DNA from: a virus
Taxonomy: Duplodnaviria > Caudoviricetes
Length of the DNA stretch: 45,911 nt
Reading direction: 5' to 3' (one strand)
IMG/VR virus record: IMGVR_UViG_3300037760_000067
Coordinates: 1-45,911 of that record
The notes below the pieces were generated by a model, which saw only the letters and a list, made by a program, of their open reading frames with translations, ran no database searches and had not been told where the DNA came from. Both the position numbers and the translations under genes were made by a program. Each line of letters begins with the position of its first letter. Position 1 is the stretch's first letter. Of the stretch, positions 3,155 through 45,796 are shown one piece after another.

Positions 3155-3573
3155 CGCAGGCCCGCTTCAACACTGTATGCGCGAAGCGACAGCTCACGAT
3201 TGCGGATGCGTTCGTTGATCTCGGTGATGCGGTTCTCCAGCCGAACCCACGCGATCTTGTCTTTCTCGGCGCGTTCCAGGAATGCACGGTACTCGTCATC
3301 GGCGTAGGCGTACTGCTCGACTGCCGCCTCGGTGACCTTGTCGCCGTGCTCCGTCAGGCGTGCGCGCGATGCGACTTTCGCCAATTCCACGCGCTGCTTG
3401 CGGATGTTGTCCCACAAACCGAACGAGCCGTAGAGCGCGGCCAGTTGCGCACCGCTGTCGATCAGCTCGCGCCGCTGCTGCTGCAACTCCTCCAGCGATT
3501 CGATGTCAGCGCGTGACTCCAGCGCGCGCATAGCATCCATCGCAGGATCGCGAGCCACCAGTGTCTCAGTCAT
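3151..3573 (-). CDS. Helical/coiled-coil protein, possibly a UvsY-like recombination accessory
   Basis: All-helical composition; KVTEAAVEQYAYADDEY segment; near SSB-like gene; family assignment weak. Confidence 0.5.
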   Translation of the reverse strand: MTETLVARDPAMDAMRALESRADIESLEELQQQRRELIDSGAQLAALYGSFGLWDNIRKQRVELAKVASRARLTEHGDKVTEAAVEQYAYADDEYRAFLERAEKDKIAWVRLENRITEINERIRNRELSLRAYSVEAGLR

Positions 3574-3992
3574 GCCACGTCTCTCCTTTCCATTCGATGC
3601 CGCTCTTTGTGATGTTTGCGGCATAGCCACACCACAACAAGCGCTCGACTGTAGTCTTCATGGTGTGCCTCGACCTTTGCCACGCCGCACACTTCGCATG
3701 GCAGCCGCTTCAGCTTTCCGCGTCGCACTGCGTTATGTACGGCAATACGAGCCTTCCAGTGTTCGGGGTGCTTCATCTTCTGACTCCGGAGCAACGCCAG
3801 CCGGTGTGGCTGTCCAGATCGCGAGCGCTCATACGCCAGGTACGCGTCTCGACGCCTCACGTAGTTCTCCTGCACGTCTCGGCGGGTGCACACGGCACAC
3901 TTGTTCAGGTGGCCGTCGGCCATCCGGGGGTGTGTGTAGAACCTGGTCAGAGTTTTCGTCTGGCCGCACTTGAAGCATTTCTTGCGTCGCAT
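3570..3992 (-). CDS. Zinc-binding HNH-like nuclease protein
   Basis: CFKC, CAVC, CEVC, EAHHEDY...WLCRKHH motifs. Confidence 0.7.
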   Translation of the reverse strand: MRRKKCFKCGQTKTLTRFYTHPRMADGHLNKCAVCTRRDVQENYVRRRDAYLAYERSRSGQPHRLALLRSQKMKHPEHWKARIAVHNAVRRGKLKRLPCEVCGVAKVEAHHEDYSRALVVVWLCRKHHKERHRMERRDVA

Positions 3993-7029: not shown

Positions 7030-7524
7030 TCATCCAGCTTTGCGGACAATGTCCTGTGATCGTTCTCGCCTCAGTTTGTCGCGCTCCCTCTTACAGACAC
7101 GACACTCTCGCCCTCGCTTGTGAGGCATGATGTTGTCGTCCGTGAACGGGTGCCCACGGACGCAGTGCGGCCACGGGCCTTTGTGCCCTACTACCATGCG
7201 AGGTGTAGTCCCCCTGACGCGCCCACGGCCCTTGCGCACCATGTCACGCACGTTGTCCGACGGGCTGCCGAGGCGGAGGTGCGCCGGATTGACGCAAATG
7301 GGCACATCGCAGCTATGCATTACATATTCTGTTCTGTCAGGCATGTGGCCCGTTGCTAGGTAATAGGCGAAACGGTGCGCCTTCATGATCTTTCGCCCAG
7401 AGATCGAGGAAGGAGGCCGGAATTTTCCATAGCCGTCCTTCGCTATGGCAGCCTGCCAGATCCAGCAGCGATCCCCATCCTTCCGAACCTTTTCCCAAAA
7501 CCTTTGAGCCACCGACTTCCTCAC
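7030..7524 (-). CDS. HNH endonuclease with C-terminal zinc finger
   Basis: RFWEKV..CWIW..GYGKF..AHRFAY..VMHSCDVPICVNPAHLRLG..DN; HCVRGH..CRVC; GTG start overlapping upstream stop. Confidence 0.9.
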   Translation of the reverse strand: MRKSVAQRFWEKVRKDGDRCWIWQAAIAKDGYGKFRPPSSISGRKIMKAHRFAYYLATGHMPDRTEYVMHSCDVPICVNPAHLRLGSPSDNVRDMVRKGRGRVRGTTPRMVVGHKGPWPHCVRGHPFTDDNIMPHKRGRECRVCKRERDKLRRERSQDIVRKAG

Positions 7525-7703
7525 GCTGCTGCCCGCTTCTTGAGCTTTCGCCACAGCTCGATCCCGACGATGACGTGGCGATCGTATCCAGCGACCGTGA
7601 TCGTGACCGGCTCTGCTTCCGCGCGGCGCAGCCACGCCCGGAGATTGTCACGGAAGTCCCGCGTCCCAACGCGCGGCTTGCTCTCGACATCGCTCTCGCG
7701 CAT
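7521..7703 (-). CDS. Phd/YefM-fold small DNA-binding protein in the Cro position
   Basis: VGTRDFRDNLRAWLRRAEAEPVTITVAG fits the Phd/YefM N-terminal consensus pattern. Confidence 0.65.
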   Translation of the reverse strand: MRESDVESKPRVGTRDFRDNLRAWLRRAEAEPVTITVAGYDRHVIVGIELWRKLKKRAAA

Positions 7704-10302: not shown

Positions 10303-12174
10303 CTAGGGTGGCGTGAATGACACATCGTCGAACCGCGACAGGATGCCCGCGGAATCAAATACACCGATCCCCTGCAGCGTCGCCGTCTGGTTGAATGCGT
10401 GCGTCGTCGAGAACACCGACACCTCATTGCGGAAAATCTCAATCGATGTACCTGCCAAATGGACGCGGATCACATCACCAGTTACGGACGCCCCGATGTT
10501 CCCGAGCACCGTGGTTCCACCCTCCCGCTTGATAACATTGCCGGTGGAGTTCAGGAAGAACAGGTGAGTGCCATCGGTAGCACGCCACGCCACGCGTGCA
10601 GTCTCGGTCGTCACCAGAGAGAGAGTGACCTCGAAATCCCCGTCGCTTGCACCGACATCCCAGGCCAGGAACGAGTTGACCGCGGCGACAGGCCGATAGC
10701 ACTGACCGCCGCTCCGGCCCCACGTCCCGCCGTTGAACACGGTTGCGGTGTGCCCGCTGTCGGATACGCCTACCGTGGTCGCGTTGTCTCCGCCGCTGAA
10801 GGTGTGCAGCAGCGGCGTGATGCTCGCTGTGACCTCTCCATCCGCTGCGAACGACCCCGTGCCTGACGCGGCGAACGCGGCCACCCGCACCCGGTGCGGC
10901 ACCAGCGTGAGCAATCCCGTGCCTGACCACACCAGGCCCGCTGTCCCCTCGACGACCGCGCCGTCCGCGGCGAACGCGCCCGCGCCCGACACGGCCAGCG
11001 CGCCGGACCACACGTCGCCAGCCAGCGGGTAGCCGAACCGTGCCGTGCGCACCTTGCCCCTGACCACCGGGCGCATGGTGACCTTGCCGCTCACCACCGG
11101 ATACGAGCGCACGCGGCCCGTGACCACCGGCCGGATGCGCACCTTGCCGGTGATGTGGCGGAACCGGCTGGGCAGCGCGCCCGCGATGAGCAGCGCGCCC
11201 GCACCCGACAACACCAAGCTCCCCTGCCGGACCATGCTCGCCGCCGCCGCAAACAGCCCCGCGCCTGACAGCGCCGCGGCCCCACCGCGCGTAACCGTAG
11301 CCGCGCCCGCGAACGTACCAGTGCCGCTCAGCGCCGCCGCGCCTGTACCCGCGATCACGCCCGCGCTCGTAAACGTGCCCGTCCCGCTCACCACAGCCGC
11401 ACCAGCGCGCGAACGCGTGGCCGTCAAGGCCAGCGCACCCGTGCCGCTCACCGCGGCCGTAGCAGCCTTCTCCAGCACGCCGGACGCGGCAAAGCTCCCG
11501 TCACCGTCCAGGGCCGCCGCGCCGTCGTGCGCGGTGCCGGACGTGGCCGCTTCCTCGAGCTGCAGCGCGCCGACGCGGCCGTTCGATGTGCCGGACGAGT
11601 CGAAGGTAAACGTCGCCGATCCCGCCGTCGCCGGACCCGCGCCCAGAATGATCCGCTGCCCGTCGAACACCACGCCATTGTCGATCGAGAGGAGTGGCGT
11701 ACCAGCAGGCTCCGCGTCCATCGTCCGGTCCTCGACCCGGAGACAGAACAGCAGAACCGGCACGCTGTCGATCGTGGTGTCGAACGTGACCGGATGCGTG
11801 GTGCCCGCGGCACCGCTCGCGCACGCGGCGGGTGGGATCACGCCTAGCTGCTCGGCGCCCGAAAACTCGGCAACGAGTACGCCCTGGTTCGTGCGGTTCC
11901 CACCGAACGTCAGGACGAGGTCGTGATCGCTCGTGTCGGTCGGAAGAAAGGCGTCCTCGGCCACCCAGAGGCGGCAGAACGGCGAGGGATTGGTCGCCGC
12001 CGCCGACAGGCTGATGCCGTTGTACGTCGCGGTCGCTACATCGCCGCCGTGGAAGAACACGAGATAGCGACCCGTGCCCGCGCTGGCGTTCCCCATCGCG
12101 TACTGCAGCGTGATGGGGTTAGTCGCCGCGCCGTTATAGACGAGGTATTGCTGCTTGACCGGGGTGAGAGCCAC
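10303..12174 (-). CDS. Gly/Ala/Thr-rich tail fibre-like protein
   Basis: About 20-aa repeats AAxSGTGxF; beta-rich terminal domains. Confidence 0.7.
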   Translation of the reverse strand: MALTPVKQQYLVYNGAATNPITLQYAMGNASAGTGRYLVFFHGGDVATATYNGISLSAAATNPSPFCRLWVAEDAFLPTDTSDHDLVLTFGGNRTNQGVLVAEFSGAEQLGVIPPAACASGAAGTTHPVTFDTTIDSVPVLLFCLRVEDRTMDAEPAGTPLLSIDNGVVFDGQRIILGAGPATAGSATFTFDSSGTSNGRVGALQLEEAATSGTAHDGAAALDGDGSFAASGVLEKAATAAVSGTGALALTATRSRAGAAVVSGTGTFTSAGVIAGTGAAALSGTGTFAGAATVTRGGAAALSGAGLFAAAASMVRQGSLVLSGAGALLIAGALPSRFRHITGKVRIRPVVTGRVRSYPVVSGKVTMRPVVRGKVRTARFGYPLAGDVWSGALAVSGAGAFAADGAVVEGTAGLVWSGTGLLTLVPHRVRVAAFAASGTGSFAADGEVTASITPLLHTFSGGDNATTVGVSDSGHTATVFNGGTWGRSGGQCYRPVAAVNSFLAWDVGASDGDFEVTLSLVTTETARVAWRATDGTHLFFLNSTGNVIKREGGTTVLGNIGASVTGDVIRVHLAGTSIEIFRNEVSVFSTTHAFNQTATLQGIGVFDSAGILSRFDDVSFTPP

Positions 12175-17365: not shown

Positions 17366-17554
17366 TCAACCCAGAAGCCAGGCCCGCGTCACCGATTGGT
17401 TCACGTTCGGGGTCAGGATCTCGATCCCCGATTGCGTGACCCGGACCGCACTCCCGCCCTCGACGGCGGCCTCGACCCCGGATTGCGTGACCCGGACCGT
17501 GGAATCGCCCTCCTGCGCGACCTCGATCCCAGACTGCGTGACCCGGACCGGCAT
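17366..17554 (-). CDS. 62-aa protein made of three VRVTQSG(I/V)E repeats
   Basis: Three repeats at 17-aa spacing; paralogous to the N-terminus of the 1137-aa tail protein. Confidence 0.75.
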   Translation of the reverse strand: MPVRVTQSGIEVAQEGDSTVRVTQSGVEAAVEGGSAVRVTQSGIEILTPNVNQSVTRAWLLG

Positions 17555-21500: not shown

Positions 21501-21965
21501 CTCGATGAACGCGCGGCGCGACAGCAATTGATACCGGCCGCTGGCATCGGCCAGGACTTCCGTGACGACACGATCGGTGCCCGTGGTGATGGCGTCGATC
21601 ACCTGGCAGGTATAGGCGCCGATGTCGGAGTGCCCGGTCAGCGGATCGAACGCTTGCCCATCGCCGTCAGGCGCTTTCAGGATGTAGGGGTTCGGCCCGC
21701 CGGCCAGCGACGTAATGACCAGCTCGTCGGCGTCGTCGGCGGCGTTGCGGACGCGGAGCCGGTAGCCGAGGGTGCCGGACGCGACGGCGCAGGTCCCGGC
21801 AGCCCCAGGCGGCGGCGCCTCGGTCAGGACCTCGATGCCGGACTGGGTAACACGCATCGCGCTGCCGCCTTGGAGCGCGGCCTCGATGCCGGACTGGGTC
21901 TCACGGACGGTCGCGCCGCCTTGGACCGCGGCCTCAGCGCCGGACTGAGTGTTCCGGACCGGCAT
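18552..21965 (-). CDS. Large tail tip/hub protein with fibronectin type III-like domain
   Basis: 1137 aa two genes after tape measure; LAAPTGLAAV..LSWT..ITGLTTGVAY FN3 pattern. Confidence 0.75.
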   Translation of the reverse strand: MPVRNTQSGAEAAVQGGATVRETQSGIEAALQGGSAMRVTQSGIEVLTEAPPPGAAGTCAVASGTLGYRLRVRNAADDADELVITSLAGGPNPYILKAPDGDGQAFDPLTGHSDIGAYTCQVIDAITTGTDRVVTEVLADASGRYQLLSRRAFIEESDDDGGSWTVLVAGYVNRCALGNALTYEFTIGEARRAEKERKLFVQVESPFDRVSNIIGTPIRGGFGPMPDFGGWKFSVTDVQATFVELEFLEGWTYDPQQSRPVGTGTGLFGHTFGQLADPIRLYVNESANAYGVRTDPSNFDGLVGSYPRLTAHVEQADGTTLGSFTPFMVVDHAVGSILPTVGMLDVHRRMYLDWTVSQPTPGDEVFVWINPIDIDERNPLHLTGHPVDLVAQAFTLAGITYDAAAHALTKSAIGDDAFVSLRLTRSMSVAAFTDMLGGLYGFTTRFGTDGEYEFLPTRAGLTAPTTTISKACLRGEGEPFALEESTIVNVVTVRHQLFDAWIDSDAGERPFDNVKVIAESVTTDNGETAVHGEHPVEYQLEGRIETRSPGQLITQSGDPIQGAKFDAWVTTLGRDMFARYGRGADEGILELLRGEHVQIGDVLMLDLDYVPSGNVRGGQKIVQVTQATVFPDGIDAKIIALGVNLQPATVPTFTIVASSLDPRHVADLAVTNAGSLPAGAIVRVEWAVGASITSGTLLALLDIDAGETTVSTPQSAAGTIVSARMRVELASQVPGAWSGWQSVTLTGLAAPTGLAAVAVDAQSYDLSWTNTETDVTVEILLRLASEPDFSAATRRLPFFLLPPGSTQFRITGLTTGVAYVAGVRYREGAPLFGLGAIVTVNLNPSGTAPTLTAPTSPVAWAGRVDAAGVRVVDGTFGMDVIASVLPSKVEFDVATETAIGSGTYGSFTLAGTIDSVSGSVTRFQANAANDGLRRALRARHVRAGSIASAYTSTVTVDPWSVSSPGAPTDAEVLTRAVSSAFPNARVVVDGDVAADFATPGQVTFYVSDAGRTIVALAQFGDGVAQPNINARAGCMLPFDLDVLGWTIWADASGAAEVDVRRATVATIGSTGFVSIAGTELPTLAAQIVAQDLALTTWTADGASGLELDADDLLDFQLQSLTTCKLVMVALKCRRRIA

Positions 21966-39281: not shown

Positions 39282-39539
39282 TCAGCCCTCCGGGAAATCG
39301 TCTGCATCCACATCGACCGCATTTGTACGGGTCCACTCGTTGGGGTTGTCGTTGCTGATGGTCTGCCCCAGCAACGTGCCGCACTCGCCCTCCACTTCGT
39401 ACGCGTACAGCACGGTACGGCCTTCGTGCAGTCGAGAGCGATAGTCGGCGAACAGGAAACGCGCGGACCCGTCGAACTCAGTCGCCAGCACCCGCGTCTC
39501 GCCATCCAGCGGCCCGCCGTAGAACCGGATCGTTCTCAT
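39282..39539 (-). CDS. Hypothetical protein ending FPEG
   Basis: FYGGPLDG N-terminal motif; GAGG RBS. Confidence 0.65.
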   Translation of the reverse strand: MRTIRFYGGPLDGETRVLATEFDGSARFLFADYRSRLHEGRTVLYAYEVEGECGTLLGQTISNDNPNEWTRTNAVDVDADDFPEG

Positions 39540-39546
39540 CGCATCC

Positions 39547-39852
39547 TCACGCGGTTGGCCACAGTTCCAAGTACTCTAGCACCTGCGTCGGCGTCAAGCG
39601 TTGCTCCTCGATCACATGATACTCCGCTGGGCTGATTTCCGCCAGAAACACCCGCTGGTCGCGCAACACCCACATCGCCAAGATCGCCGGGCACTTCGTG
39701 CACCGCACGGTCAGGAAATCGTTCGACCGCGCGGCGACGCGGACGTGGTGCCCGTGGGGGCAGACGACCCGCCCGCGGTCGACGATCCGGAGCCAGCGGA
39801 CGCGTGCCCCTGGCGGCTCGAGGCGAACGAGCGCGTCAGCGCGACGCGGCAT
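39547..39852 (-). CDS. Putative zinc-binding protein (possible late regulator)
   Basis: CPHGHH...CTKC; directly downstream of the RAMP-like gene. Confidence 0.55.
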   Translation of the reverse strand: MPRRADALVRLEPPGARVRWLRIVDRGRVVCPHGHHVRVAARSNDFLTVRCTKCPAILAMWVLRDQRVFLAEISPAEYHVIEEQRLTPTQVLEYLELWPTA

Positions 39853-39858
39853 TTAGGG

Positions 39859-40500
39859 CTAGGCCGCGGCGGCGCGCACGGCGGACACCTCCACCCGCTG
39901 GAAGCGTCCCCAGCCCAGCGCGCTGCTACGCTCAGGGCGCCCCTCGCAGATGCCCACACCCCACCCGGCTTGGTCGACCAACGCCAGCAACTGCTCCTCG
40001 CTGACCAGTCGCGAGTTGAATTCGATGGACACGCGCAATTGCCACTCGTCGTACTGCGGGCGATAGGCCAGCCCACGCGTGTTGATGCCAATCGTGACCG
40101 CGTCCTCTCGCATCGTCGGGGTCGCGCTGCTGCCATCGTGCCGCTCGATCGGGACCAGCGCGGCGCTCTCGTCGTCCGTGAACGAGACGAACAGCGCTTG
40201 ACGCAACCCGACCTTGGTCAGGTCGTCAAATGCTGTCGCCGCTGAGACGAGCGCCTTTTTGAGAGCGGTGACGGGCACGCAATCCCGATCCTCTGCGTCG
40301 ATGTAACGCGCCGCGTTGAACTCCTCCAACGGTCGCCGCTCGGCCTTGGCCTCCCGCTTCTTCTTCGCCTGCTTGTCGCGAATCTCCTGCTTGGCCTTCT
40401 CCGCGAACGCGTGCACCACAAGCAGTGCGCCAGGCCGGTTCCTGAGCACTACGTCGATCTTCTGGATCACCGGGGGGTTGTCCGTCGATTTCGTGGCCAT
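39859..40500 (-). CDS. Stand-alone RAMP/Cas7-like RNA-binding protein (Vipr-like), 213 aa
   Basis: N-terminal strand ending LLVVH, VPVTALKKALVSAA helix motif, C-terminal Gly-rich loop GWGVGICEGRPERSSALGWGRF; GGAG RBS before ATG at 40500. Confidence 0.75.
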   Translation of the reverse strand: MATKSTDNPPVIQKIDVVLRNRPGALLVVHAFAEKAKQEIRDKQAKKKREAKAERRPLEEFNAARYIDAEDRDCVPVTALKKALVSAATAFDDLTKVGLRQALFVSFTDDESAALVPIERHDGSSATPTMREDAVTIGINTRGLAYRPQYDEWQLRVSIEFNSRLVSEEQLLALVDQAGWGVGICEGRPERSSALGWGRFQRVEVSAVRAAAA

Positions 40501-40533
40501 CGTTATGTGTCTCCATGTGTGAGTTGTGCCACT

Positions 40534-40799
40534 CCTGCCATGCCATGCCCAGCCGCATCGCGCCCGGCCTTGCCGCACCAAGCCCGGCCTGCCTCGCCAC
40601 GCCTAACCGGGCCGTACCGCGCCTAGCCTCGCCTGCCTCGCCTTACCTGGCCTAACCCGACCATGCCTCGCCCCACCCGGCCAGACCGCGCCTGCCGTGC
40701 TAAGCATCGCCTCGCCCAACTTTGCCTCACCCGACCATGCCAGACCTGCCGTGCCCAACCAGATCGCGCAGCACCGGGCCCAACCGGGCCTCGCCTGCC
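40534..40799 (-). ncRNA. GGY-NN pentamer array: five candidate guide RNA units separated by GGCAGG
   Basis: 48 pentamers, 42 with exact GGY; boundary hexamers (CCTGCC on plus) start at 40534, 40588, 40632, 40691, 40745, 40794; RNA function inferred. Confidence 0.8.
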
Positions 40800-40812
40800 G
40801 TGTGTTAGCTCA

Positions 40813-40983
40813 TCACACCTCCGTGGGTTGTAGTGCCAGCTGACGGCCTGCGAAGGGTTGGGGCTGCCTCCCCCCTTGCCTCGGGTACGATCGTTCGTCC
40901 TGCGTGACGCAGGACCCCTCTGCGTCGATTCTGGCGGCCAGGTCCAACCGCTGGCCGGGATACACGACGTGAAAGCGACTCAC
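40813..40983 (-). CDS. Hypothetical protein
   Basis: GTGA-coupled 56-aa ORF ending just before the array. Confidence 0.4.
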   Translation of the reverse strand: MSRFHVVYPGQRLDLAARIDAEGSCVTQDERSYPRQGGRQPQPFAGRQLALQPTEV

Positions 40984-41411
40984 GGCGCCACCAGCGGGGT
41001 GATCGTGAGCACGATCCGGTACGACACGCCGCGCTTGACGACCTGCTCGGGGAGTCCTGCCCACTCGATGTTCCGCTTCCGGTCGTCGGCGATGTACTTG
41101 GCGTGTCGCAGCCAATCGAGCAAAAATTTGTGCCTAGCGAGTGCGTTGTCGTCGTCCATGTGCGCGCCGAGGTGCATGACGCTGGCGATGCGGACCCGCT
41201 CGTAGGGCGATTCTGGCCGGCGAGGCAGCGCGCCGCTCACGTACAGCCCGTTGAGCACCTTCCAGTAGGCTTTCTTGCGGCCTTCGGCTGCCCGCCAGTG
41301 CCGCGACTCGCGAGTGTTGGTCAAGTTCGGCGGCATGGGTAGCGTGATCTCGATGACACCGGCGAGCCTGTTCGCGGCCTGGCGTAGCGGATCGGGGGCG
41401 ATCTGGCTCAT
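40980..41411 (-). CDS. RusA-like Holliday junction resolvase
   Basis: ITLPMPPNLTN..HW..MDDDN..LLDWL..IADD acidic catalytic pattern. Confidence 0.7.
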   Translation of the reverse strand: MSQIAPDPLRQAANRLAGVIEITLPMPPNLTNTRESRHWRAAEGRKKAYWKVLNGLYVSGALPRRPESPYERVRIASVMHLGAHMDDDNALARHKFLLDWLRHAKYIADDRKRNIEWAGLPEQVVKRGVSYRIVLTITPLVAP

Positions 41412-41617
41412 GTGCCCACCGCCGCGTAGCACGTACGGCATTCACGACGGTCGCCGCTGTTCCACGCGCCGCAGCCTGGGCTACCGCACCGCCACAATGG
41501 CCGGCTGGAGCTCGGCGGGTAGTCGTGCGGTGGCGCGAAGTCGGCCTGGAACTCGAGCTGACGGCGCGTGTCGCCGTGGATCAGTTCGCGCCGCTGCCAA
41601 TTTGGGTGGCGGGTCAT
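41408..41617 (-). CDS. Small zinc-finger protein
   Basis: WRCGSPGCGAWN..RRECRTC (RanBP2-like pattern). Confidence 0.5.
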   Translation of the reverse strand: MTRHPNWQRRELIHGDTRRQLEFQADFAPPHDYPPSSSRPLWRCGSPGCGAWNSGDRRECRTCYAAVGT

Positions 41618-45732: not shown

Positions 45733-45754
45733 AGGCCTTTTGGGAAAAGCCCAG

Positions 45755-45796
45755 TGGGCCCTGCAGGAATCGAACCTGCGACCGTCGGATTATGAG
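45755..45796 (-). other. attP core: 3' half of a CAU-anticodon tRNA (probably tRNA-Ile2, possibly Met)
   Basis: Minus strand CTCATAA-TCCGA-CGGTC-GCAGG-TTCGATT-CCTGC-AGGGCCC-A; no 5' half upstream; near int on the circle. Confidence 0.85.

Follow-up and report, generated by a model that had tools for sequence, protein, structure and literature searches.

We analyzed a viral DNA stretch of 45,911 nucleotides (the window: positions 1 to 45,911 of the IMG/VR record IMGVR_UViG_3300037760_000067, Caudoviricetes), in which an array of GGY-type repeats precedes the gene for a 213-residue protein related to Vipr, the protein of the VIPR systems, a class described for the first time in 2026 (10.64898/2026.04.26.720920). 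The array, 266 nt long and oriented like the gene, occupies positions 40799-40534 of the minus strand, and 33 nt separate its end from the ATG at position 40500. The vipr locus lies between the genes for RusA and terminase (Table 1). The original prediction had described a non-coding minus-strand array placed in this way ahead of the gene, and the description holds.

Periodicity was counted as exact 5-nt steps from one GGY triplet to the next. The array contains 38 such steps in 270 nt, whereas the runner-up within the window, coding sequence rich in Gly and Ala near position 11148, has 10; 20 third-order Markov simulations yielded a maximum of 6 period-5 GGY pairs, and the plus strand of the window gave at most 3. 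Six GGCA/GG junctions (the stroke marks the boundary), each a step of 4 nt, delimit five units of 9, 10, 11, 8 and 10 pentamers: GGY starts 42 of the 48 full pentamers, each unit closes with GGCA, and the next unit follows 4 nt on, with no sequence between the units at the window array. Thus the predicted alternation of fixed GGY triplets with variable dinucleotides (NN), divided into five units, is confirmed. There is a stop codon in every one of the six frames over 40501-40830, so the array is non-coding. The array RNA shows no folding advantage over shuffled versions (z = -0.77), and the 3' flank gave z = -0.33; no Rfam family matched at gathering score in the window. A separately assembled contig of 8,178 nt, which may derive from the source sample, is identical over 39300-41474.

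Table 1. Features of the vipr locus, with positions in the window. ORF, open reading frame.
Feature	Position	Strand	Remark
Staggered vrRNA-type array: five GGY-NN units, one-base register slips at GGCA/GG	40534..40799	-	Same junction in relatives
Unit 1: 9 pentamers + GGCA, GGY start 7/9	40747..40795	-	
Unit 2: 10 pentamers + GGCA, GGY start 7/10	40693..40746	-	
Unit 3: 11 pentamers + GGCA, GGY start 11/11	40634..40692	-	
Unit 4: 8 pentamers + GGCA, GGY start 8/8	40590..40633	-	
Unit 5: 10 pentamers + GGCA, GGY start 9/10	40536..40589	-	
Two pentamer-like steps past the last junction, extending the array slightly; putative truncated sixth unit	40526..40535	-	Sequence reading
Shine-Dalgarno-like GGAGA of vipr; GGAG ten bases 5' of start	40510..40514	-	Sequence reading
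vipr gene, 213 aa; RAMP with a single RRM, a thumb and a glycine-rich loop	39859..40500	-	
Cys/His ORF, 101 aa, 3' of vipr	39547..39852	-	No family found
56-codon ORF overlapping the RusA stop, then coupled ATG-AGC-TAA mini-ORF	40805..40983	-	Sequence reading

The protein had been credited with RAMP-like hallmarks, and its predicted fold is indeed that of a RAMP, with Csm3 and Cmr proteins as the best structural matches. The match of its family profile to SUSP1 Vipr spans 177 positions (E = 3.7e-14); the single-sequence comparison with the same protein gives E = 0.0017, and HHalign gives 98.4% to the homologue from Felixounavirus ESCO50. The equivalents of SUSP1 H17, R138, D177 and R179 are retained, the ORF is intact, and identity to the 119 best homologues among the matches listed is 68-80%. 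PADLOC reports no family at the locus, a search for Cas1 that was positive in 7 of 14 control genomes found no match in the record, and none of the 35 tandem-repeat rows of the window is a CRISPR-like array, in agreement with the earlier statement that no cas1/cas2, nuclease cas gene or repeat-spacer CRISPR array is visible in the genome.

The linkage between gene and array was evaluated in 48 viral loci, 29 of them close relatives (58-78% identical), with the requirement that the strand of the gene carry at least 9 period-5 GGY pairs no more than 800 nt away. All 29 close loci carry an adjacent same-strand array, which is the association that the original prediction had proposed to look for among homologues: the array is downstream only in 21, upstream only in 4 and on both sides in 4, while the opposite strand never exceeds 6 period-5 GGY pairs. 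Inside the relatives' arrays, GGCA accounts for 162 of 181 four-base steps. Junction spacings follow 5n+4 in 105 of 128 cases across the clade, with a mode of 9-10 pentamers, and 82% of all pentamers are of the GGY type, non-GGY pentamers being normal there. Inspection of the 3' flanks in the clade revealed no shared motif, and no neighbouring protein family, array translations aside, is common to more than 6 of 30 loci. The 101-residue Cys/His ORF was considered as a candidate vap but is not supported as such: its one weak match (E = 0.006), in 1 of 27 related viral records, lies ~25 kb from vipr. Because no neighbour family is widely shared and this match is single, weak and unlinked, no vap is evident. 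The window gene encodes a Vipr homologue, its array with the GGCA/GG slips is genuine, and the two occur together throughout the clade.

Some of the relatives' arrays contain duplicated and chimeric units (L005, 1309-1879; L020, 3610-3915; L029, 4600-5223), which points to guides turning over inside the array through slippage or recombination. A second Vipr clade, comprising the more distant loci L030-L048 (~32% identity), keeps the Trp that the window protein has replaced, and 17 of its 19 loci have GGCA-staggered arrays ~1-1.5 kb downstream of the gene; an accessory gene would fit in this interval.

In VIPR systems, NN is reported to pair with DNA in such a way that one target base in three, mostly the wobble base, is left out (10.64898/2026.04.26.720920); under this rule, NN would be expected to look like codon positions 1-2. 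We compared this expectation with a clade-wide pool of 868 dinucleotides from 90 unique units in 26 loci. NN frequencies are correlated with sense codon positions 1-2 (Spearman 0.70 for window genes, 0.62 for clade ORFs), whereas antisense positions 1-2 give 0.00 and -0.20, respectively, and a frameless control -0.10; the second-best model, antisense 2-3, reaches 0.47 and 0.51. Sense is favoured over antisense in 67 of the 90 units, and in each of 1000 locus bootstraps sense 1-2 outranks the other five of the six models (rho 0.49-0.80). This pooled signature is indirect support for the 1-nt-skip rule, other causes of the composition being possible, and it suggests that most guides copy sense-strand codon positions 1-2, in which case their pairing partner would be the template strand of the DNA and synonymous changes would be tolerated. 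The gapped NN code of the original prediction fits both the published description and the pooled codon signature, although no target of the five guides was found. The same signature provides a target-free check of the skip rule and of strand bias in clades without sampled targets. In addition, a block of four dinucleotides is common to unit 1 and to guides of two relatives, L004 and L012 (a three-locus block arises in 3% of shuffles), and the arrays of these two relatives, downstream and upstream of their genes, have six dinucleotides in common (shuffle mean 0.01). The shared block hints at a common conserved target of independent loci.

These results make it very probable that the window contains a VIPR locus of a temperate phage, in which vipr and its five-unit staggered array are predicted to carry out guide-directed silencing, most likely of competing phages. 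For the VIPR systems of SUSP1 and P. fulva, binding of one GGY per subunit and repression at DNA targets have been demonstrated (10.64898/2026.04.26.720927; 10.64898/2026.10.15.759431). By analogy, Vipr would likely coat each unit as a guide RNA, one protomer per pentamer hiding the GGY and displaying NN. If the window protein behaves like its published relatives, NN would pair to a target in double-stranded DNA, every third base being skipped, and the bound filament would block transcription and so silence competing elements. The anatomy of the locus suggests further steps. The array is probably co-transcribed with the early replication operon, since upstream translation ends 5 nt before it and neither a sigma-70 promoter nor a terminator was detected in 39300-41600. 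The one-base slip at GGCA/G would likely end a filament and mark where the transcript is divided, and the resulting guides would be tail-less and about 44-59 nt long.

Several observations weigh against this interpretation. In the array, 6 of the 48 pentamers are non-canonical, units 1 and 2 holding 3 non-GGY pentamers each. In the protein, the position of SUSP1 W178 is occupied by Gly187, which is invariant in 46 close homologues, and SUSP1 K82, which is essential there, aligns to Thr89 in a stretch of low alignment confidence. No tail, ribozyme or nuclease that would account for processing is present, and the codon signature is a composition argument for the pooled clade, not a property of the window's five guides. 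Finally, scans of collections poor in the likely host lineage revealed no natural target of the five guides: units 1, 2, 3 and 5 have no full-length exact match in viral contigs; unit 3 has none in metagenomes and no match within 3 mismatches in 27 related viral records; unit 2 has no 20/20 match among 106 partial ones; and the two exact matches of unit 4, the shortest, represent one 41%-GC sequence with skips off the wobble position, and are chance-like. Matches of the guides within their own contig do not exceed 75%. These target nulls are weak evidence, because the large collections were scanned for exact matches only and genomes of the host lineage were outside the scans.

How, then, are separate guides produced from units that follow one another directly? 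They may not be: the array could remain uncut, as one long transcript carrying five Vipr filaments in series, with the GGCA/G slip doing nothing but break the register. The lack of a Cas6-like nuclease, a ribozyme or a structured tail (see the folding scores above) is in line with this alternative, as is the published small-RNA confirmation, which is listed for ribozyme-interspersed and single-vrRNA systems and skips staggered arrays (10.64898/2026.04.26.720920). We nevertheless regard it as unlikely, given that the legend of fig. S18 in the same preprint refers to the staggered units as 'individual processed vrRNAs', that the clade's units, like free vrRNAs, have lengths centred on 9-10 pentamers, and that the junction word is fixed as GGCA, though any 4-base step would break the register.

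A different alternative concerns the targets: the guides could be directed partly against host genes, with unit 2 repressing the host gene for S-adenosylhomocysteine hydrolase (ahcY). Two GC-rich metagenome sequences that agree with unit 2 at 18 of 20 bases, the skips falling at the wobble position, lie within ahcY; the peptide reading of this guide agrees at 9 of 10 residues with 10 of 120 proteins; and the named relatives of the matched AhcY subtype include Krumholzibacteria and two Gemmatimonadota, the phylum to which the three named integrase relatives also belong. However, the match was chosen post hoc from 22 distinct sequence groups, with no perfect match in the whole set of 106; the two AhcY proteins named as Gemmatimonadota match at only 6 and 8 of 10 residues; none of 10 looked-up carriers bears a phylum label; a phylum would be expected to hold a 19/20 match by chance; and published natural VIPR targets are mostly phage or satellite genes (10.64898/2026.04.26.720920). 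We consider this alternative improbable.

Marginally less probable still is a decaying or silent cassette, formerly functional and now without expressed guides or live targets. The failure to find a target, the non-canonical pentamers and the lack of a detected promoter would be expected of such a cassette, but its ORF is intact, has a ribosome-binding site and is as similar to its best homologues as stated above, the exact 5n+4 register is preserved in all five units, non-GGY pentamers are usual in the clade, and the likely host lineage is thinly represented in the scanned collections. That the repeats work at the DNA level, as protein-binding iterons or as a G-rich structure, or form a low-complexity coding tract, without RNA guidance, is most improbable: the tract is G-rich and near replication genes, yet in 29 of 29 relatives the array tracks vipr and not the replication module, always on the strand of the gene, its variable positions carry a codon signature, and all six frames contain stops.

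Guide-directed silencing by a VIPR locus thus remains our preferred reading, and it can be extended, although we think the extension itself doubtful. The window would then represent the most reduced VIPR form, a single 213-residue protein without accessory gene, tail or ribozyme, in which Vipr reads the GGCA/G slip and thereby measures and releases the guides; the guides would for the most part be directed at template strands of protein-coding genes; and the clade, distinct and tightly conserved, with Gly for the Trp of the G-loop and having spread among phages of ~41-70% GC, may be an unnamed VIPR subtype.

The genome around the locus encodes an integrase, a repressor, a replication initiator, DnaB, RusA, terminase, portal, capsid and endolysin in a 45.9-kb record with terminal repeats, and the phage is temperate. 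Its three integrase homologues with an organism name are all from Gemmatimonadota (41-43% identity); the host is, on this sequence evidence, likely a member of that phylum, and the locus likely places VIPR in phages of Gemmatimonadota. Upstream of the array, a mini-ORF of two codons (40805-40813, minus strand) is coupled to the preceding stop via TGATG and ends 5 nt before the array. The ORFs at 40805..40983 are likely early-operon context and no component of the system. The word at the mini-ORF, AGCTAACAC, also stands directly before the upstream array of one relative (L001). By sequence reading, half of a tRNA (the 3' half, anticodon CAT) lies at 45754-45796 (minus strand), near the integrase across the terminal repeat, and is a likely attP core; ARAGORN found no whole tRNA there, and the half has no exact match in genome contigs. 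Two 51-bp tandem repeats (2.3-2.6 copies; 17420-17550 and 21830-21947) lie within the virion structural genes, and the early region contains two HNH/endonuclease-like genes (3570-3992 and 7030-7635).

A single further VIPR locus adds little in itself, since the class, its code and the staggered layout have already been published. We found no account of how tail-less staggered arrays yield separate guides in the accessible text of the VIPR preprints: the word 'staggered' is missing from that of the two later ones (10.64898/2026.04.26.720927; 10.64898/2026.10.15.759431), and a survey that recovers 99 period-5 array clusters does not mention staggered arrays in its accessible part. With one gene and five guides in less than 1 kb, the present cassette is about the simplest construct for this question.

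It is instructive to compare the locus with known systems. The original prediction had likened the layout to that of VIPR systems and allowed for a member rather than a new class; the profile match to Vipr and the five-unit layout, which is the published staggered one, bear this out. Compared by description only, from the text and the legend of fig. S18, the locus shows no difference from staggered VIPR (10.64898/2026.04.26.720920), whose units come from positions overlapping by one base, so that the end of one is the start of the next: both have a phage-borne Vipr RAMP, GGY/NN pentamers and one-base unit overlap, without a CRISPR array or self-targeting. VIPR is mostly viral or proviral, and the window locus stands among phage genes; guides typically have 9-16 tandem pentamers of the form YNNGG (GGY/NN), one of the window units falling just below. 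No vap gene is recognisable here, and stand-alone vipr genes occur according to the methods section of the same preprint (10.64898/2026.04.26.720920). Type II VIPR (SUSP1; the P. fulva prophage, PDB 36pp) shares a homologous protein, the same repeat and the H, R, D/E and R contact residues. In contrast, type II guides are separate, each followed by a structured, conserved 3' tail (as seen in ESCO50), and vap1 lies beside vipr, whereas the window units stand back to back, tail-less and without vap; SUSP1 W178 and K82 are replaced by Gly and apparently Thr, and in a quick tree the ESCO50 protein occupies a very long branch distant from the window clade. Class 1 CRISPR Cas7/Csm3 proteins are 5-18% identical, and the repeat-spacer array, Cas1 and partner cas genes of those systems are lacking. 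The RAMP-fold protein, Vipr homology, adjacent non-coding array, co-occurrence of gene and array and viral setting of VIPR are found at the locus, as are the one-base unit overlaps of its staggered form, while the features of type II (tail, vap1) and CRISPR-Cas are not; it is a further example of the known VIPR class with the published staggered layout and no new kind, and the published supplementary tables may already list members of its clade and its type. A parallel is seen in Mycobacterium phage Saal (gp51-52; L283) and other cluster relatives: Saal has a staggered array (1030-1310) with GGCA/GG junctions upstream of the vipr-like gp51 and a protein 33% identical, which is matched by 27 Mycobacterium and 5 Gordonia phage records. 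Saal differs in a 151-residue gene directly downstream (a candidate vap), in keeping the G-loop Trp and in falling outside the window clade. As a cultured mycobacteriophage, it offers a tractable natural model for staggered arrays.
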